A stretch of DNA of 36,252 nucleotides from a virus. Under the pieces are notes generated by a model. It was not told the DNA's origin and did no database searches. It was given only the letters and a program-made list of their open reading frames with translations. This document shows positions 7,054 to 29,679 of the stretch, in pieces. Location: UHGV virus genome UHGV-0046263. One strand, 5' to 3'. Each line of letters starts with the position of its first letter. Position 1 is the stretch's first letter. The position numbers and the translations under genes were made by a program.

Positions 7054-8892
7054 ATGAGCGAGTTTGATGTTTTTTCTATTTCAGTTGATGATTTTAAAAA
7101 AAGTGAATACGCCAGTATATTATCATCGCCAAGAAGTTATTCTCATTTTGATATGGAGTCTTATTTTGTTCAGTTGTTGTCATCTTACAAGCTAAAAAAC
7201 GATGTAAGTTCTTGGCGGCTTTGCTATTTATTACGTGCGTTGTTTAATTTTAAATTTTCTAGGTCTGGTGATATTATCGGTTTTGAGCCAAAAATCATTC
7301 TCTATCCTGAGAGGGGCTATAGGCCTTCAGATTATAAGGAGAGTTTTTCAACAATATTAACTTGTATTAAAGAAAACTCCGATAATCCTTATATTATATC
7401 TAGGGTGTGTGATGTTTTATGGATAAATAACCGTAAGGATATAGACTCTGCCAATAAAGCAATAGAGTCATATTCTCTAATGGTTAATGATGCTTGCGAT
7501 ACTTTAATAGAAAAACAAGAGTCAGGTGATATCCATATTTTTGATGTTGTTGACTGCTTGGATAGAGGTATCGCAATATCGCGCATGCTTATTGGCAGGA
7601 AAAAACAACTACAAGGGGGGATAGTTGATTCGACATTAAGGTTATATCATGTATTAATAGACTCTGGTATATTCACCGGTGTATTAAGAGTTTCTGAAAT
7701 TCTTTATAAGAATAATTTATTGTGTCCCTTGCAATTGGCTGAGAATGCAGAAAAGATAGCTGATGAGCATTGTGGAGCGTCTTATTTTGATGCAGTGAAA
7801 AAATTGTTTTATTTTGCGTCTGAATTATATGTTAAAAACGATATGGAAGAGCAAGGAAGACGGTGCAGAATTAAAGCGTCAGAAATAACATTGGCTCAAT
7901 TTGAACAGTCTTCATCTTCAATATTGAAGGCTCATTGGTTAAGAGTTGCTCTTGGCGAATTTAGAGCAATTGGTGGAATGAATGAAGAAATTAAAAAGAT
8001 TAGAGAGGAATTGAATTCTATTCGAGATCAAATCAATGATGAAATGCACTTCTTTGCAATACCAATGGATCTTAGTGATGTTATCGCTCAGAAAGAGCAT
8101 GTTTATAATCAATTGGATTTCTCAAGGGTAATTAAAACTTTAATTGCTAGATTTAAGATTGTAAGTGCCAGTGAAATTATGGAAAGAGCTCGTTCCGATG
8201 CTAAAAAACATTTTTTTCTTAATATGAGTGAAACGGTTGTTTATGATGATAGAGGGCGCGTTGTAGCAAGTCGTTCACCTTTGGATCCTGCGGGGGATAT
8301 AAGTTTAAATGATGCTTGTGCAAATTATTTAAGAACTAGTAACATTGAGCATCAGGTCTATGTTTGTGGTGAGTTTGAAGTCGTTAGGCAAAGTGTGTTG
8401 GCTAGGTATTCATTAAATGAAAATACATTTGACCCAATCTCACAACAAAGTGCATTTGTTCCACCTGGGTATGCAGAAATATTTTCTTTGGGGTTTTATA
8501 AGCTTTGGCAGGGAGATTATGTGTCTGCCTGTTATTTGTTATTGCCGCAATTGGAGAATTCAATTAGATGGATTTTAGAATTAAGAAGAAAAGAAACAAC
8601 GAAAATAGATGTGTCGCTTTTTGAGGAGGCTACTAGCCTATCTCAAATGCTTGCAAATTATAGGAGTGAAATGGAAGGTGTTTTTGATAGTGATCATGTA
8701 TTGACTATGGATTTATTGTTCAATATGAAAGGTGGTGCTGCAATTAGACACACGATGGCTCATGGCAGGTATACTGTAAATCATTGTTATCAACCAACTT
8801 CAGTTTTTGCCTGTGTCTTTATCTTTTATTTAACTTGTTTGCCTTTATTTAGTGTATGGGAAGATAAAGTTGAACCTTATCTGGCTGATTAA
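7054..8892 (+). CDS. AT-rich cargo protein, 612 aa, unknown function; possible C-terminal HEPN-like domain (candidate abortive-infection/defence effector)
   Basis: Strong ribosome-binding site AAGGTGAGG 4 nt upstream of the ATG; long uninterrupted ORF; AT-rich relative to the phage backbone; sits where tin/old lie in P2; C-terminal LENSIRWIL...AAIRHTMAHG contains an Rx4H motif. Confidence 0.7.
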   Translation: MSEFDVFSISVDDFKKSEYASILSSPRSYSHFDMESYFVQLLSSYKLKNDVSSWRLCYLLRALFNFKFSRSGDIIGFEPKIILYPERGYRPSDYKESFSTILTCIKENSDNPYIISRVCDVLWINNRKDIDSANKAIESYSLMVNDACDTLIEKQESGDIHIFDVVDCLDRGIAISRMLIGRKKQLQGGIVDSTLRLYHVLIDSGIFTGVLRVSEILYKNNLLCPLQLAENAEKIADEHCGASYFDAVKKLFYFASELYVKNDMEEQGRRCRIKASEITLAQFEQSSSSILKAHWLRVALGEFRAIGGMNEEIKKIREELNSIRDQINDEMHFFAIPMDLSDVIAQKEHVYNQLDFSRVIKTLIARFKIVSASEIMERARSDAKKHFFLNMSETVVYDDRGRVVASRSPLDPAGDISLNDACANYLRTSNIEHQVYVCGEFEVVRQSVLARYSLNENTFDPISQQSAFVPPGYAEIFSLGFYKLWQGDYVSACYLLLPQLENSIRWILELRRKETTKIDVSLFEEATSLSQMLANYRSEMEGVFDSDHVLTMDLLFNMKGGAAIRHTMAHGRYTVNHCYQPTSVFACVFIFYLTCLPLFSVWEDKVEPYLAD

Positions 8893-9053
8893 TGGAAGTT
8901 GATTTAGGTATTTTGGCATTTATCTTTCTGCGTGCAATATGTGCATGGTTTTGCATGTGCCGGAGTTGCATGTTCCGGCCGTGCGTCCGCCAGGACGGGC
9001 GTGGCTCAAAAGCGGTATTGCACCTGCATTAAAACCGCCCCACGAAGCGGGCG

Positions 9054-9072
9054 GGCGAGGCGGGGAAAGCAC
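9054..9072. other. cos site (19-nt cohesive end, P2/P4 type) within a GC-rich structured packaging region (about 8930..9110)
   Basis: Exact match to GGCGAGGCGGGGAAAGCAC, the P2 cohesive end as I recall it; flanked by repeated TTGCATGT motifs and GC-rich hairpins. Confidence 0.55.
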
Positions 9073-9110
9073 TGCGCGCTAAACGATGTCGCTGGCTTGC
9101 AGTTACCCGG

Positions 9111-9139
9111 TTGAAATTCTTATTTTTTTGTTGCATTAT
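9111..9139 (+). promoter_or_regulatory. Sigma70-like promoter candidate (TTGAAA, 17-bp spacer, CATTAT) upstream of the RT module
   Basis: Hexamers and spacing read directly from the sequence; no experimental support. Confidence 0.3.
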
Positions 9140-9146
9140 TCTTAGC

Positions 9147-9395
9147 GCACCAGCGATTCGCTTGGTATGCGGCAGTCAACAACATTAAATTGTCAGTTTT
9201 TGCTTTTACAAAAAAGCGTCCACTATGGACCTATCAGCGAGGCCCCACCGTCGTCAACTACGATGGTGCCGTAGCCGACGACATTACGTACGGTCGAAAG
9301 ATAGCAGAGGCTGTTGCTGACAATTGTTGATGTAAGCATCTCTGCTGTTCCACCCTTGAGTATGGGAAGACCGTACGTAACTTTGAATTTGAATG
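9147..9395 (+). ncRNA. Candidate structured ncRNA upstream of the RT (possible retron msr/msd)
   Basis: About 250 nt non-coding between the promoter candidate and the RT start, with hairpin GCTTTT-ACAA-AAAAGC (9202..9217), a 13-bp imperfect stem (9250..9262 / 9270..9282) and a perfect 12-bp inverted repeat TTACGTACGGTC / GACCGTACGTAA (9284..9295 / 9369..9380) ending 17 nt before the RT ATG. Boundaries are not defined. Confidence 0.3.
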
Positions 9396-9397
9396 GT

Positions 9398-10588
9398 ATG
9401 TTTATGGATAAATTTAAACCATACAGCAAATCCAATGCTCCTATCACAACACTTGAAAAGTTGTCAAAGGCTTTATCGATTTCTGTTGAAGAGCTTAAAG
9501 CTATTGCAGAATTATCATTAGATGAGAAATATACTCTAAAAGAAATTCCCAAAATTGACGGAAGCAAACGGATTGTCTACTCCCTACATCCTAAAATGAG
9601 ATTATTACAGAGTAGAATTAATAAACGTATTTTTAAGGAATTGGTTGTTTTTCCTTCATTTTTGTTTGGTTCAGTTCCCAGTAAAAATGATGTTTTAAAT
9701 TCTAATGTCAAACGTGACTATGTTTCATGTGCAAAGGCTCATTGTGGAGCAAAAACAGTTCTCAAGGTGGATATAAGTAATTTTTTCGATAATATCCATA
9801 GAGATCTGGTTAGGAGCGTGTTTGAGGAGATATTGCATATTAAGGATGAGGCTCTTGAATACTTGGTGGATATATGTACTAAGGATGATTTTGTCGTACA
9901 GGGGGCCTTAACATCAAGCTATATAGCAACTTTGTGTTTATTCGCTGTTGAAGGGGATGTGGTAAGACGTGCGCAGAGGAAAGGACTTGTTTATACGCGT
10001 TTGGTAGATGATATTACCGTGTCATCTAAAATAAGTAATTATGATTTTTCTCAAATGCAAAGCCATATAGAGAGGATGCTTTCTGAGCATGACTTGCCGA
10101 TAAATAAGCACAAAACAAAAATATTTCACTGTTCATCTGAACCTATAAAAGTACATGGTTTAAGAGTTGACTATGACTCACCTCGACTACCATCCGATGA
10201 AGTCAAAAGAATCAGGGCATCTATACATAATTTGAAATTACTGGCGGCAAAAAATAACACAAAAACAAGTGTTGCATACAGAAAAGAATTCAATAGATGT
10301 ATGGGGAGAGTGAATAAGCTTGGCCGTGTTGGGCATGAAAAATATGAATCATTCAAGAAACAGTTGCAGGCAATAAAACCGATGCCATCTAAAAGAGATG
10401 TTGCTGTGATTGATGCAGCTATAAAAAGTTTAGAGTTGTCGTATTCGAAAGGTAATCAAAATAAACATTGGTATAAAAGAAAATATGATTTGACGAGATA
10501 TAAGATGATTATTCTTACTCGCTCTGAATCATTTAAAGAAAAACTGGAGTGTTTTAAATCTAGATTGGCATCTTTAAAACCATTATGA
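9398..10588 (+). CDS. Retron-type reverse transcriptase (about 396 aa from the ATG at 9398)
   Basis: RT motifs in canonical order: LSKALSISVEEL, GSKRIVYSLHPKMRLLQ, CAKAH (NAxxH-like), LKVDISNFFDNI, QGALTSSYIATL, YTRLVDDITVS (YADD box reads LVDD), INKHKTKI, VHGL (VTG-like). Start uncertain (TTG 9314, ATG 9362, 9398 or 9404). Confidence 0.85.
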   Translation: MFMDKFKPYSKSNAPITTLEKLSKALSISVEELKAIAELSLDEKYTLKEIPKIDGSKRIVYSLHPKMRLLQSRINKRIFKELVVFPSFLFGSVPSKNDVLNSNVKRDYVSCAKAHCGAKTVLKVDISNFFDNIHRDLVRSVFEEILHIKDEALEYLVDICTKDDFVVQGALTSSYIATLCLFAVEGDVVRRAQRKGLVYTRLVDDITVSSKISNYDFSQMQSHIERMLSEHDLPINKHKTKIFHCSSEPIKVHGLRVDYDSPRLPSDEVKRIRASIHNLKLLAAKNNTKTSVAYRKEFNRCMGRVNKLGRVGHEKYESFKKQLQAIKPMPSKRDVAVIDAAIKSLELSYSKGNQNKHWYKRKYDLTRYKMIILTRSESFKEKLECFKSRLASLKPL

Positions 10589-11292
10589 ATGCAAATATTA
10601 GACTTCTCAAATATATTGTCGGTGTGTCGTCAGCTCTTTTTTTGATTTTTTCGCTAATTTCTCTTTTTGAAACTATTCAGAATGAAAAGCTATATGAGCG
10701 TGATATATGCTTCGATAGCCAGTGCTTAAAATTTTTTGCGGAAAAAACATCTGGTATAGTAATGTATTTTCAGGCGTTTGGATGGCTTATAACAACTTTT
10801 GTTACCGTTTTTGGTGTTATGATTGCTTTGATGACATATAACGCTGGAGTTAAAAATAATAATAATAGTAATTACACTAGTCATCTGACGATGTTTAGAG
10901 AATTTGCAAGTGCTGAGTTAACTAAAAGAAGTAGCATCTATCCAGAGAAAGTTAATTTTTTTAGATGGTATAGGGTTATGTTCCCTGAAGCGCAAGGCGG
11001 TGATATATCTGTTTCGAGAGATTATCTAGAAATAATATCTAGAATCAAATGTGTTATTGAGGAAGCCAATGCACATATTACAGAGGAAAATAAAGACTAT
11101 AAATATAAAACTCATCAGAGAAAAATGATGGCTGTTTTGGATGAAATCGGTATATCGATTAGTAATGGGCCCAAAAATATTTTTATTGAGGTTGAGAGTC
11201 AAATTTTGGATTATATCGATACTATTAATTTGTCATTTTGTCACTCCTCATCAGTGATAGAATTAAGTAGAGTAAAAAGGAAGTATATATAG
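10585..11292 (+). CDS. Two-transmembrane-helix protein, 235 aa, translationally coupled to the RT (candidate effector)
   Basis: ATGA start/stop overlap with the RT; hydrophobic segments IVGVSSALFLIFSLISLF and FQAFGWLITTFVTVFGVMIALMTY; AT-rich. Confidence 0.75.
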   Translation: MNANIRLLKYIVGVSSALFLIFSLISLFETIQNEKLYERDICFDSQCLKFFAEKTSGIVMYFQAFGWLITTFVTVFGVMIALMTYNAGVKNNNNSNYTSHLTMFREFASAELTKRSSIYPEKVNFFRWYRVMFPEAQGGDISVSRDYLEIISRIKCVIEEANAHITEENKDYKYKTHQRKMMAVLDEIGISISNGPKNIFIEVESQILDYIDTINLSFCHSSSVIELSRVKRKYI

Positions 11293-20571: not shown

Positions 20572-21357
20572 TTATGAGTGATTTTTATTTGATGCTTTGT
20601 ATTCTAAAACCTTCTTATTGGCGTAAAAGAATTTTGTATATGACAGGAATATAACCAGACCTGAAGTGAAATAGACGAGGGATAGTATTAATAATGCTTT
20701 TTTGTGACTGTTATTATCTTTAATCTCCTGGCTTAACCATTCGGAGTCCTCCTCGTTTAGCTGTAAGAGCTTATTGCAGGCGATCTCAGGAAGTGTGTCT
20801 TTTATAAATACGTTTTGCAGTCTCTTGCAATCGGCAAGGCTATAAGTTTTATTAAATTCAACTGCTTTATTTTTGAAGGATAAAAGAACTTTGTCACTAT
20901 AAACATAGTACATCATGTTTTTATATGGTATGCCTATGGCATCCCTTACTATAACGGATTGTTCGTTGTGTATGTAACATGCGAGGAGAATGTAAAAAAT
21001 ACTGGCCAGAATTACAATTATTGTTTTAATTATGTGTGGTGGTTTTGTTATGTCACCCCAGATGCGAGTAAGGAAAAAATACGATGTTTTTAGTTTTCCA
21101 TCAATCAGTCCCTGCTGTATCATTCTCACATTTTCAATGCCTGATACATTGATTCCATTAATTATTTTAAATAGTTGAATGTCGCGCCACTCGCGGTCAA
21201 GTCTTTTTAATTTTTTGTCTGAATATCCAAAATTGAAATAATGTGCAATAAGCCTCATAAGGTTACTTTTACCAAAGCTAAAAAATGCTAATACTGCAAA
21301 GCTACAAAGGAAAAAAACGATTAGCCCCCACACATTAGTCACATTATAGCTGACCAT
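20572..21357 (-). CDS. AT-rich moron: 261-aa integral membrane protein of unknown function (P2 orf30 position)
   Basis: Opposite strand to the late genes; strong AAGGAG ribosome-binding site; hydrophobic segments at the N-terminus, middle and C-terminus; AT-rich. Confidence 0.7.
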   Translation of the reverse strand: MVSYNVTNVWGLIVFFLCSFAVLAFFSFGKSNLMRLIAHYFNFGYSDKKLKRLDREWRDIQLFKIINGINVSGIENVRMIQQGLIDGKLKTSYFFLTRIWGDITKPPHIIKTIIVILASIFYILLACYIHNEQSVIVRDAIGIPYKNMMYYVYSDKVLLSFKNKAVEFNKTYSLADCKRLQNVFIKDTLPEIACNKLLQLNEEDSEWLSQEIKDNNSHKKALLILSLVYFTSGLVIFLSYTKFFYANKKVLEYKASNKNHS

Positions 21358-26449: not shown

Positions 26450-26712
26450 GTTGTATGATCTCTGGTGTGAGCTTACATATCTATAGCACAGAGTAAAGCC
26501 TAATCTGACAGTCCGCTATGTGCCAAGAGCGGACATTCCTGACCAAGTTATGTTAATCTGCCTGTAGAAAGCCTTGGTTAACTGCTCTACGTTTTTCCTA
26601 CTTGCTTCTAACGCTTAAATATTCGGAAAGCAAAAAACATGTAACATGAGGCTTGGTAAACAACCCACTCGGTTCATCATTAGATAAAATTAACAGCAAT
26701 ATAGGTGAGCAA

Positions 26713-27714
26713 ATGTTTGAAGAGCATAATGAAGATAAAACAGTTCAGGACAGCGTAAGAAAAATGTTTTTAGCCTCTATTCCAGAGCGTCAGAATGAAC
26801 TGGATGAGTTCTGGTCTAAATTTAACATGACCTTCCAAAATCATAGCGATAATCATACAGACGGTAAATTTATTTTTGATGCGGGGATGTATCGATTTAT
26901 CCGCTTCAATCATCGTGTTTTGCGCACGTTCTGGATAGGAACATTTGCTGCAATGGCGGGCTACGAAGCAATAAACACTGAGCAAAATAAAAAAATTGAA
27001 GACATTATCGATAAAAGGGATTCTATTTTAGATCTTTTTGACTCAAAGAAAATATCATTAGTCTCAACCGAGTCAGAATTACATGTTTTACTCGAGGAGC
27101 TACAGGAAGAACTTGCTGATTTCAGTTCGGCAGACTTCGTAAACTTTGAACAGTTAATCTGCGCTTTTGAAAACACGGCTAAAGATGAGGTACCGGATGA
27201 AAAACCACTACCAATAGGAATTCCTGAACCTGGCACCATGCCTGACAGTAAAATCGAACCAGTTAAAAGAGCAACAGCTGAATTAGCAATTATTGCTGCT
27301 GCTTGGGCATTTTTGCATGAAGTCCGACATATCATTCATCAGCAGGAAGGTACCAGTTATGATATGAATGAATTCACACAAGAACAAGCTCATAATGAAG
27401 AGTTCTCATGTGATGAGTTTGCAACTAAATTCATCCTTGACCATATAGATAATTACTGTGAAGAGTCTATGTATGACCGTGTGTTGGTGAGCAGGAAAAG
27501 AAGACTTTCTATATACTGTGCATTATTCAGCGTTACTATGTTAGGTAAAAACAACTGGGGTTTTTCAAAATCTCACCCTTCACTTCAGGATAGAATAAAT
27601 AAAGTAAAAGCATTAATGAAAGAGCCTGATGATGAGGTTCTCGAATATATTGTGGAGACTATGTTTAAGTCTATTGCTAGAATCTGGCCAACCGTTCCTA
27701 CTGTCAAATTCTGA
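26713..27714 (+). CDS. AT-rich cargo protein, 333 aa, with an HExxH zinc-metallopeptidase-like motif (Z/fun position)
   Basis: AGGTGAG ribosome-binding site upstream of the ATG at 26713; HEVRH within AWAFLHEVRHIIHQQE; acidic helical N-terminal half; followed by an intrinsic terminator. Confidence 0.7.
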   Translation: MFEEHNEDKTVQDSVRKMFLASIPERQNELDEFWSKFNMTFQNHSDNHTDGKFIFDAGMYRFIRFNHRVLRTFWIGTFAAMAGYEAINTEQNKKIEDIIDKRDSILDLFDSKKISLVSTESELHVLLEELQEELADFSSADFVNFEQLICAFENTAKDEVPDEKPLPIGIPEPGTMPDSKIEPVKRATAELAIIAAAWAFLHEVRHIIHQQEGTSYDMNEFTQEQAHNEEFSCDEFATKFILDHIDNYCEESMYDRVLVSRKRRLSIYCALFSVTMLGKNNWGFSKSHPSLQDRINKVKALMKEPDDEVLEYIVETMFKSIARIWPTVPTVKF

Positions 27715-28237: not shown

Positions 28238-29344
28238 TTATTCATCGTATTTAGGTGAGAAAACACTTATTTCTTTGGACCAGATGCCGAAACCTTCAAT
28301 ATCAAGGGTGAACTCAATAGGTAATTTGCTATCTTTATATTCAGTTGGTATCACCCGAATATTTTTGACATTTTTTACACAATGTAATGGAGTGTATTTG
28401 TTTTTTGTGATTGAATCAAAAATTGGTATACAAGATAAGCGTATAACTTCTAATTTAACTAATTTGTCTAGCCACATTGTTCCTTCAAAGTCATGGAAGA
28501 ACTGTCTTATTCTGGAACCCAATGTTGGATGGGAATAAATCTCACCTCTAATGGTGGAAAGGGAAGTATATATTTTTTGTGGTAAAGCTTCAAACCCCGA
28601 TATCGTAGCTATATCACCAGAACTATTTACAAATAAATCGCCTGTCGTGAAAATATCTAAATCCATTGGGAGGCTATTGCAATTGATGCGCGGAGTGTCT
28701 ATTTCAACAGGGACGATTACTTCATAGCTATCTGGTAATTTATTTAATTTTATTGGTGCTGATAACAAACGCCCCTCACCAAGTTGATTAACTAGAATAA
28801 ATTTTTCTTCGGTAGGGATGGAGTGGAATCTTTCGTTGAAAGATATTAACTTAGATAAATCGCCAGTAAAGAAGTTTGCAAATTTTATAGTCCACTCATT
28901 GGTTGAGATTCCGGTAAGCTCTCCGAAAACGATAATGTCTATACCTATTGCAATGAAATCATTATGTTTGGTTGATGAAGAACCATTGCTCACCTCTTTT
29001 TTAATCTCTTCTTCGTGGGCTTTCTTCATTTCTTTAAGAATTTCTGCTGTATATCTAATTTCATCTCTATCAATTTCAACGCTGTGATTAACACACATCC
29101 AGATGCCATTATTTATATCTTTCCTTTCATCTGGTGTTTGATTAGGATCATATCGTCTTGCTAATGGCCCAGGAGCTGCGGCATGAATGTGCGCAGCTAC
29201 CCCAATATTTGTGATAGATGTTAAGGATTCATCACTGGGGCCAACTGTAAGCTGATTACAACCGGGGAATGAGCACCTATAACCAGCCCGTAGTGCTAGA
29301 GCTCTTACAGTTTTTGAGCTGAAATCATCGCGTGTTTTAGACAT
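28238..29344 (-). CDS. AT-rich cargo protein, about 368 aa, with an N-terminal HNH nuclease domain and a C-terminal domain of unknown function
   Basis: CxxC (CSFPGC) ... AAHIHAA ... NGIWMCVNHS arrangement typical of HNH; start taken at the ATG at 29344 (MSKTR); the ORF could extend to a TTG at 29380. Confidence 0.7.
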   Translation of the reverse strand: MSKTRDDFSSKTVRALALRAGYRCSFPGCNQLTVGPSDESLTSITNIGVAAHIHAAAPGPLARRYDPNQTPDERKDINNGIWMCVNHSVEIDRDEIRYTAEILKEMKKAHEEEIKKEVSNGSSSTKHNDFIAIGIDIIVFGELTGISTNEWTIKFANFFTGDLSKLISFNERFHSIPTEEKFILVNQLGEGRLLSAPIKLNKLPDSYEVIVPVEIDTPRINCNSLPMDLDIFTTGDLFVNSSGDIATISGFEALPQKIYTSLSTIRGEIYSHPTLGSRIRQFFHDFEGTMWLDKLVKLEVIRLSCIPIFDSITKNKYTPLHCVKNVKNIRVIPTEYKDSKLPIEFTLDIEGFGIWSKEISVFSPKYDE

Positions 29345-29679
29345 GTTTAAAGCCTTTAAAAATAAAAAGACACCTAACAATATAATTATGCTTACCTTTC
29401 AGCAGCATCTTACAACGGTAAACCCATGTTCCTTTATATACTGCATATTAGCAGTTAAAAATGAACCTGAACAAGAGGAAGTTAGATGAAAGTGGACAAG
29501 AGTTACATCAAATCGGGGTTGTATTAGCAATACGCCAAGAATCACTATTTCATATAGATCATGTTAGATACTAAACCGCCCCTTAACTTCCGCTCCTCGC
29601 TCAAAGCAGACTGTCAGATTTGATAGCGTTTTGGCTATGTAAATTGTCAGTCGGGAAATAAGTGAGTACAAATCATGAC

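Follow-up and report, generated by a model that had tools for sequence, protein, structure and literature searches.

The LVDD and VHG motifs of a retron reverse transcriptase gene in P2-like phage DNA

The DNA analysed here, a stretch of 36,252 nucleotides from a virus genome (UHGV-0046263; hereafter the window), carries a reverse transcriptase (RT) gene whose product reads LVDD in place of YADD in motif C, and VHG in place of the VTG triplet that is typical of retron RTs. These departures raise the question of whether the enzyme is impaired or altered in its catalytic properties, as had been suggested in a first-pass annotation of the sequence, or whether they are simply the forms that its relatives carry. 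The findings reported below make it very probable that the locus is Retron-Eco6 (Ec48), a type IV retron of RT clade 3 borne by a P2-like prophage, and that LVDD, VHG and the associated CAxxH are the normal forms of this clade, kept by purifying selection and entailing no defect.

Identity of the retron and its prophage setting

The open reading frame listed by program for the RT (9314..10588, plus strand) begins with the TTG codon at 9314. Its product matches the PADLOC profile RT_IV with an E-value of 1.1e-176, covering 385 of the 386 profile positions, with RT_V coming second at 2e-63; in Pfam it matches RVT_1 (2e-31). Over the portion of the supplement to Doman et al. 2023 (PMC10482982) that was compared (from the Gly following ATG 9362 to residue 399 of 407), the protein is identical to Ec48-RT at 399/399 residues. 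All nine residues named in that paper (E60, L182, T189, E279, K307, R315, K318, R378 and T385) agree with the window RT, and residues D216 and D217 of Millman et al. (2020), counted from ATG 9362, are the two aspartates of LVDD. With its start, the downstream gene overlaps the stop codon of the RT, and its product, in which two hydrophobic segments can be seen, is an exact match to the protein that UniRef names "Retron Ec48 transmembrane protein, TM48_ECOLX" and which RefSeq, at an identical locus, names "retron Ec48 family effector membrane protein". The sequence identity, the residue numbers used in two papers and the name of the effector establish that the window holds Ec48 itself. The RT is paired with a PF28197 gene in all eight homologous loci inspected (8/8). 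Copies 100% identical to the 2.45-kb module occur in several complete E. coli genomes, and at least 80% of it is present in 57 of 5,426 genomes. Features of the locus are collected in Table 1.

Table 1. Features of the retron locus, in coordinates of the window.
Feature	Position	Strand	Remarks and basis
a1 inverted repeat	9177..9196	+	Core 9188-9196 pairs with 9317-9325; conserved G at ~9196
Predicted msd template, 48 nt	9269..9316	+	Directly 5' of a2; canonical mechanism and reported 48-nt (45 sequenced) RT-DNA
Long RNA hairpin	9284..9380	+	9284-9295 with 9369-9380, 9300-9309 with 9340-9349; RNAalifold
a2 inverted repeat	9317..9332	+	Covariation, alignment
Retron Ec48 (Retron-Eco6) RT gene	9404..10588	+	PADLOC RT_IV, Pfam RVT_1, identity to published sequence, RefSeq
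CAKAH (variant of region X NAXXH)	9728..9742	+	Asn to Cys, His kept; family consensus CAxxHC
Motif A, LKVDISNFF	9761..9787	+	Third catalytic Asp and FF pair; aligned to Ec86 ILNIDLEDFF
Motif B, QGALTSS	9899..9919	+	Ec86 QGAPSSP; usual Pro to Leu
Motif C tetrapeptide, LVDD	10001..10012	+	Translation; aligned to Ec86 YADD
VHG (variant of VTG triplet, start of region Y)	10151..10159	+	Aligned to Ec86 VTG
Retron Ec48 two-transmembrane (2TM) effector	10585..11292	+	PADLOC 2TM_IV 4e-85; UniRef TM48_ECOLX

In RefSeq, an identical locus has its genes in the order integrase, Cox, replication endonuclease, DUF7380, RT, effector, portal, terminase and P2-family capsid. The site, between replication gene A/cos and portal gene Q, is one of P2-like (Peduovirus) cargo, and Retron-Eco6 is also carried by phage pro147. 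The sequence GGCGAGGCGGGGAAAGCAC at 9054..9072, which we take to be the 19-nt cohesive end of P2, lies within a GC-rich stretch (~8941..9080) matching the terminal parts of Peduovirus genome records. This places the retron between cos and the portal gene, with the DUF7380 gene on the other side of cos. In other E. coli genomes, the shared sequence begins at ~9017 and does not extend upstream of it, so that the two sides of cos seem to exchange their cargo independently of each other.

Further genes of the window resemble cargo. Between the P2 replication gene and cos, 7054..8892 (plus strand) encodes the 612-aa DUF7380 protein, an uncharacterised second cargo product next to the retron, matching the candidate defence family PDC-S39 of PADLOC (2e-68). 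A Lit-like peptidase U49 is encoded at 26653..27714 (plus strand; PADLOC Lit 7e-11, Pfam PF10463 4e-7), and a 380-aa protein whose N-terminal 140 residues match an endonuclease effector and PDC-M68A (1e-23) at 28238..29380 (minus strand). As judged from their sequences, these last two are likely to be additional defence cargo genes, lying in the interval from tail-fibre assembly to tail-sheath genes that corresponds to the P2 Z/fun hotspot. A 261-aa orphan ORF is found at 20572..21357 (minus strand), between a virion morphogenesis gene and baseplate gene V; it matches no Pfam or PADLOC family and is hypothetical in RefSeq. In the Providencia and Morganella loci examined, the type IV retron has a P4-like satellite context in place of a P2-like prophage, with a DUF927 primase and Ogr/Delta upstream and, in Morganella only, an integrase downstream. 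From such gene contexts, the type IV module appears to move between helper phage and satellite hotspots.

Motif variants in the RT and its relatives

A phmmer comparison with solved structures places YTRLVDDITVS (9992..10024) on YTRYADDLTLS, and KVHGL (10148..10162) on KVTGL, of the Ec86 RT. The translation and this alignment confirm that motif C lies where the first-pass annotation had put it, with both aspartates kept, and that the VTG position reads VHG. The positions given in the annotation overlap the true sites; the range given for the catalytic box starts 5 (LVDD) to 14 (YTRLVDDITVS) bases off, and that for VHG is off by 2. In the numbering of the 408-aa form of the protein, the tetrapeptide is L214-V215-D216-D217. 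The family alignment shows no variation at D202 and D203, and CAKAH and VHG retain the His of region X and the Gly of region Y. Region Y belongs to the thumb and to msr recognition. The G of VTG and the H of NAXXH are described as the most conserved residues (Mestre et al. 2020). With LVDD and VHG, the window RT falls outside the canonical YADD/VTG retron RTs of the Ec86 type; it has the type IV RT profile, the 2TM effector, the xxDD box and the motif A Asp.

The variants are the rule in their family. Among 121 sequences (the window RT plus 120 homologues with identities as low as 45%, mostly 394-396 aa long and from Enterobacterales, Pseudomonas, Burkholderia, Variovorax, Acidithiobacillus and others), LVDD is found in 116, FVDD in 3 and YVDD in 2; the triplet is VHG in 114, IHG in 6 and VHS in 1; and region X is CAxxHC throughout. 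The loci of relatives were gathered by exact-protein look-ups and by a metagenome scan with alignment. The pattern used in the scan began at the Val, so that position 1 of the box is unbiased; in the independent set of 70 distinct metagenomic RTs it gave LVDD 53 times, FVDD 12, YVDD 4 and MVDD once, with VHG in 62 and IHG in 5. An Acidithiobacillus locus has YVDD, yet the same effector and the same upstream RNA. In a wider sample, the 144 clade-3 cluster representatives obtained by a whole-library phmmer search, DD is preceded by [L/Y/F/W] and then, in most cases, V/I/L (a single sequence has Ala); H, T, N and other residues stand in the middle of "VTG", and YADD occurs in none of the 144. Spot checks with PADLOC assigned YVDD+VHG and YVDD+VLG to RT_IV, LLDD+VTG to RT_V, and Y[V/I]DD and FADD to RT_VI.

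From these alignments, Leu is a common residue at motif C position 1 in types IV and V, freely exchanged with Phe and Tyr, a pattern which indicates a selected hydrophobic/aromatic site where several residues are acceptable. LVDD, VHG and CAxxH are clade signatures under purifying selection across Proteobacteria. Since YADD is absent from all 144 clade-3 representatives sampled, it is not a defining feature of retrons overall. In practice, YADD and VTG should not serve as hard filters in the recognition of retron RTs, types IV, V and VI using [L/Y/F][V/I/L]DD and varying in the middle residue of VTG. Within clade 3, a Leu in motif B travels with the Leu in motif C (124 L-L vs 21 Y-P), an association inseparable from phylogeny. 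A mutual-information scan for residues co-varying with Leu or Tyr in motif C returned only a clade-level signal, confounded by phylogeny.

For Ec48, these features were in the literature. The 2019 review of Simon et al. (PMC6868368) records that RT-Eco6 has His for the Thr of VTG and a replaced Asn in NAXXH, and its reference list includes the work of Mao, Inouye and Inouye (1996) on the LVDD box of Ec48 RT. The LVDD/VHG finding is therefore accurate, and repeats what had already been published.

The upstream RNA and the start of the RT

By nhmmer, 72 of 89 loci carry a noncoding RNA (ncRNA) element ahead of the RT. The core of the a1/a2 helix is 90.9% paired, with double compensatory changes at 9/9 pairs (43 distinct loci). 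Conservation with compensatory changes extends past a2 to about 18 nt before the RT start, as seen in 8 and then in 43 distinct type IV loci, and includes a long hairpin that is 94% paired with compensatory changes at 19 of 22 pairs (43 loci). Slid controls for the ncRNA helices gave 31-51% pairing. Taken alone, the hairpin has a folding energy of -41.8 kcal/mol (z = -5.8). Its 5' arm coincides with the predicted msd template and its 3' arm with the RT leader; as a2 lies in its apical loop, it crosses the a1/a2 helix. Nested folding of the two conformers gave -70.5 and -74.4 kcal/mol, making them near-isoenergetic. The crossing helices, contained in 9167..9386, could represent a pseudoknot or a switch coupled to reverse transcription.

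In the predicted 48-nt cDNA no significant hairpin was found. A local inverted repeat (9250-9262/9270-9282) was considered as the msd stem and discarded, one of its arms varying in relatives with no compensation. An Rfam scan of 8700..9700 returned no retron RNA family, and a chance match to a miRNA (E=0.37).

RefSeq places the start of the RT at 9404 (394 aa), whereas the 408-aa form in the literature, also used in PE6a, begins with ATG 9362. This ATG lies within an invariant AUGGG element of the RNA, the next codons run into the 3' arm of the conserved hairpin, and the equivalent ATG in Providencia and Morganella meets a stop after 2 and 14 codons, respectively. ATG 9362, lying in the invariant element and followed by early stops in relatives, was rejected as the likely start, as was TTG 9314; the native start is probably 9398 or 9404. 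The first ~14 residues of the 408-aa "Ec48 RT" of the literature are probably translated ncRNA.

The conserved G at ~9196 is presumably the branching (priming) G, whose 2'-OH is the primer for branched msDNA in retrons generally. The RT would prime at G9196 and copy leftwards from 9316, through a template (9269-9316) that forms the 5' arm of the hairpin. Copying of this template would free the RT leader and could in turn influence how the RT and effector are translated, as with the hybrid RNA of type VI retrons, in which reverse transcription derepresses translation and which the arrangement of the Ec48 ncRNA recalls. It is conceivable, if unlikely, that the type IV ncRNA works as an RT-coupled RNA switch of this sort, made of two covarying, crossing and near-isoenergetic helices, and that LVDD, VHG and CAxxH belong to an adaptation to the locked, hairpin-less template. 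The ncRNA of this family has a conserved 3' extension in competition with a1/a2, which may matter for the engineering of Eco6-type retrons and for the way in which reverse transcription is coupled to gene expression in clade 3.

Activity of the enzyme and comparison with other systems

The identical protein is shown in the literature to copy part of the upstream ncRNA into a 45-48 nt msDNA. Under the favoured reading, in which the motifs are ordinary forms of an active clade, the replacement of Tyr by Leu would be a near-neutral hydrophobic/aromatic exchange, with Leu214 taking the role of the Tyr and packing under the primer terminus. Val for Ala would be an ordinary variant of motif C, Val215 being expected to contact the incoming nucleotide, and His265 would open the thumb region that reads the msr stem-loop. 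Wild-type MMLV RT reads YVDD, with Val at position 2. Expressed in E. coli, Retron-Eco6 gives rise to homogeneous RT-DNA, for which a length of 48 nt had been reported and 45 nt was obtained by sequencing (PMC8989520). The D216A/D217A double change abolishes phage defence, for which the 2TM protein is also needed, and the system kills the cell once RecBCD is inhibited by lambda Gam or T7 gp5.9 (Millman et al. 2020).

That LVDD and VHG depress or change the activity of the polymerase (processivity, dNTP handling) and in this manner tune signalling through the cDNA is improbable. The msDNA of Ec48, at 45-48 nt, is the shortest in E. coli, which could be taken as a sign of weak polymerization; its length, however, has been ascribed to RNase H1 and the ncRNA and not to motif C (PMC8989520), and it is plentiful enough to have served as a gel reference in published work. 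Wild-type Ec48 RT copies foreign pegRNA templates in human cells only weakly, is less active than Tf1 RT and is a "minimally active" prime editor in T cells (PMC10482982). Yet this same enzyme is the parent of PE6a (E60K K87E E165D D243N R267I E279K K318E K343N), in which rational design and phage-assisted evolution brought a gain of at least 22-fold with LVDD and VHG unchanged (PMC10482982). The PANCE clones in tables S2D and S2E of that study show no changes at 213, 214 or 264, which are the numbers of the L, V and H when the Met is not counted. Ec48 RT may thus have a modest handicap on foreign templates; nothing links such a handicap to LVDD.

Results with other polymerases cut both ways. 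Processivity and fidelity depend on the equivalent residues Tyr183 and Met184 in HIV-1 RT, and rate and fidelity on Val867 in hTERT; but motif C of hTERT, a fully active RT, is the identical tetrapeptide (Leu866-Val867-Asp868-Asp869), and the L866Y change leaves activity, rate, processivity and fidelity near those of the wild type (PMC1851649). Moreover, the residue at position 1 switches among L, F, Y and M within the clade while effector and ncRNA stay the same. The literature covered, outside which the 1996/1997 primary papers fall, yielded no kinetic data setting L214 against Y214 in Ec48 RT, and a modest effect on activity is still conceivable.

The interpretation offered in the first-pass annotation is therefore partly supported. 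The two motifs indeed set apart a distinct subfamily, namely the type IV (Ec48) retrons within clade 3. A loss of polymerase activity or a change in substrate handling finds no support, the identical protein being active in vivo, and the outcome that the annotation itself had named as adverse is observed, LVDD being common, indeed the norm, in a characterised and active clade. Little is at stake in the variants as such, this being a model retron enzyme known to be active and in use as PE6a.

It is very improbable that LVDD, QGALTSS, CAxxH and VHG evolved together with the type IV ncRNA, whose template is locked in a 22-bp hairpin and whose cDNA lacks a hairpin, and that these residues serve initiation or strand displacement. 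The set of motifs and the architecture of the ncRNA are both clade-wide, and the Leu residues of motifs B and C go together, as such co-adaptation would predict; but this co-occurrence is fully confounded by phylogeny, YVDD and FVDD members such as that of Acidithiobacillus have the same ncRNA and effector, and type V RTs combine LLDD with VTG. That the RT is inactive or pseudogenised, or that motif C is mis-assigned with the real box elsewhere, can be dismissed for practical purposes, being refuted by the Ec86 alignment and the published activity of the identical protein: the ORF is intact, motifs A and C have their Asp and Asp-Asp and region X its His, all of them aligned, and purifying selection is strong across Proteobacteria.

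Among known systems, the locus matches Retron-Eco6 (Ec48) in its RT, in its identical 2TM effector and in the order ncRNA, RT, effector; LVDD, VHG and the changed Asn of NAXXH all agree with the reports for Ec48. No difference between the two systems was found beyond the annotation of the start. The likeness to hTERT is confined to four residues of an unrelated lineage, which has domains specific to TERT and copies an internal RNA template; it is either convergent or an ancestral hydrophobic feature and implies no subfamily homology. A His at the VTG position is not unique to type IV, since the solved Kva2 RT (type IX) reads KVHG there; Kva2 differs from Ec48 in its canonical YADD (221-224), in its effectors (HEPN and WH) and in its clade.

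The Ec86 (Retron-Eco1) RT, of type II-A3 (structures 7V9U and 7XJG), can be aligned with the window RT over residues 43-307, with motifs A and C, the region X His and the region Y Gly in register. The similarity is modest (phmmer E=3e-16 only), and YADD, VTG, NATPH and QGAPSSP of Ec86 are replaced by LVDD, VHG, CAKAH and QGALTSS. The effector of Ec86 is nucleoside deoxyribosyltransferase-like, whereas that of Ec48 is the 2TM protein. Closer relatives are found in the same RT clade, where Retron-Sen1 (Se72, type V) and type VI retrons such as Retron-Vpa2 have motif C of the form [L/Y/F][V/I/L]DD. Type V representatives of the Retron-Sen1 kind have LLDD, keep VTG and differ from Ec48 in their effector, yet Gam triggers Retron-Eco6 and Retron-Sen1 alike. 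Type VI retrons mostly have Y[V/I]DD with VH/N-N and carry different effectors; they make little msDNA, and their hybrid RNA controls translation of the effector.
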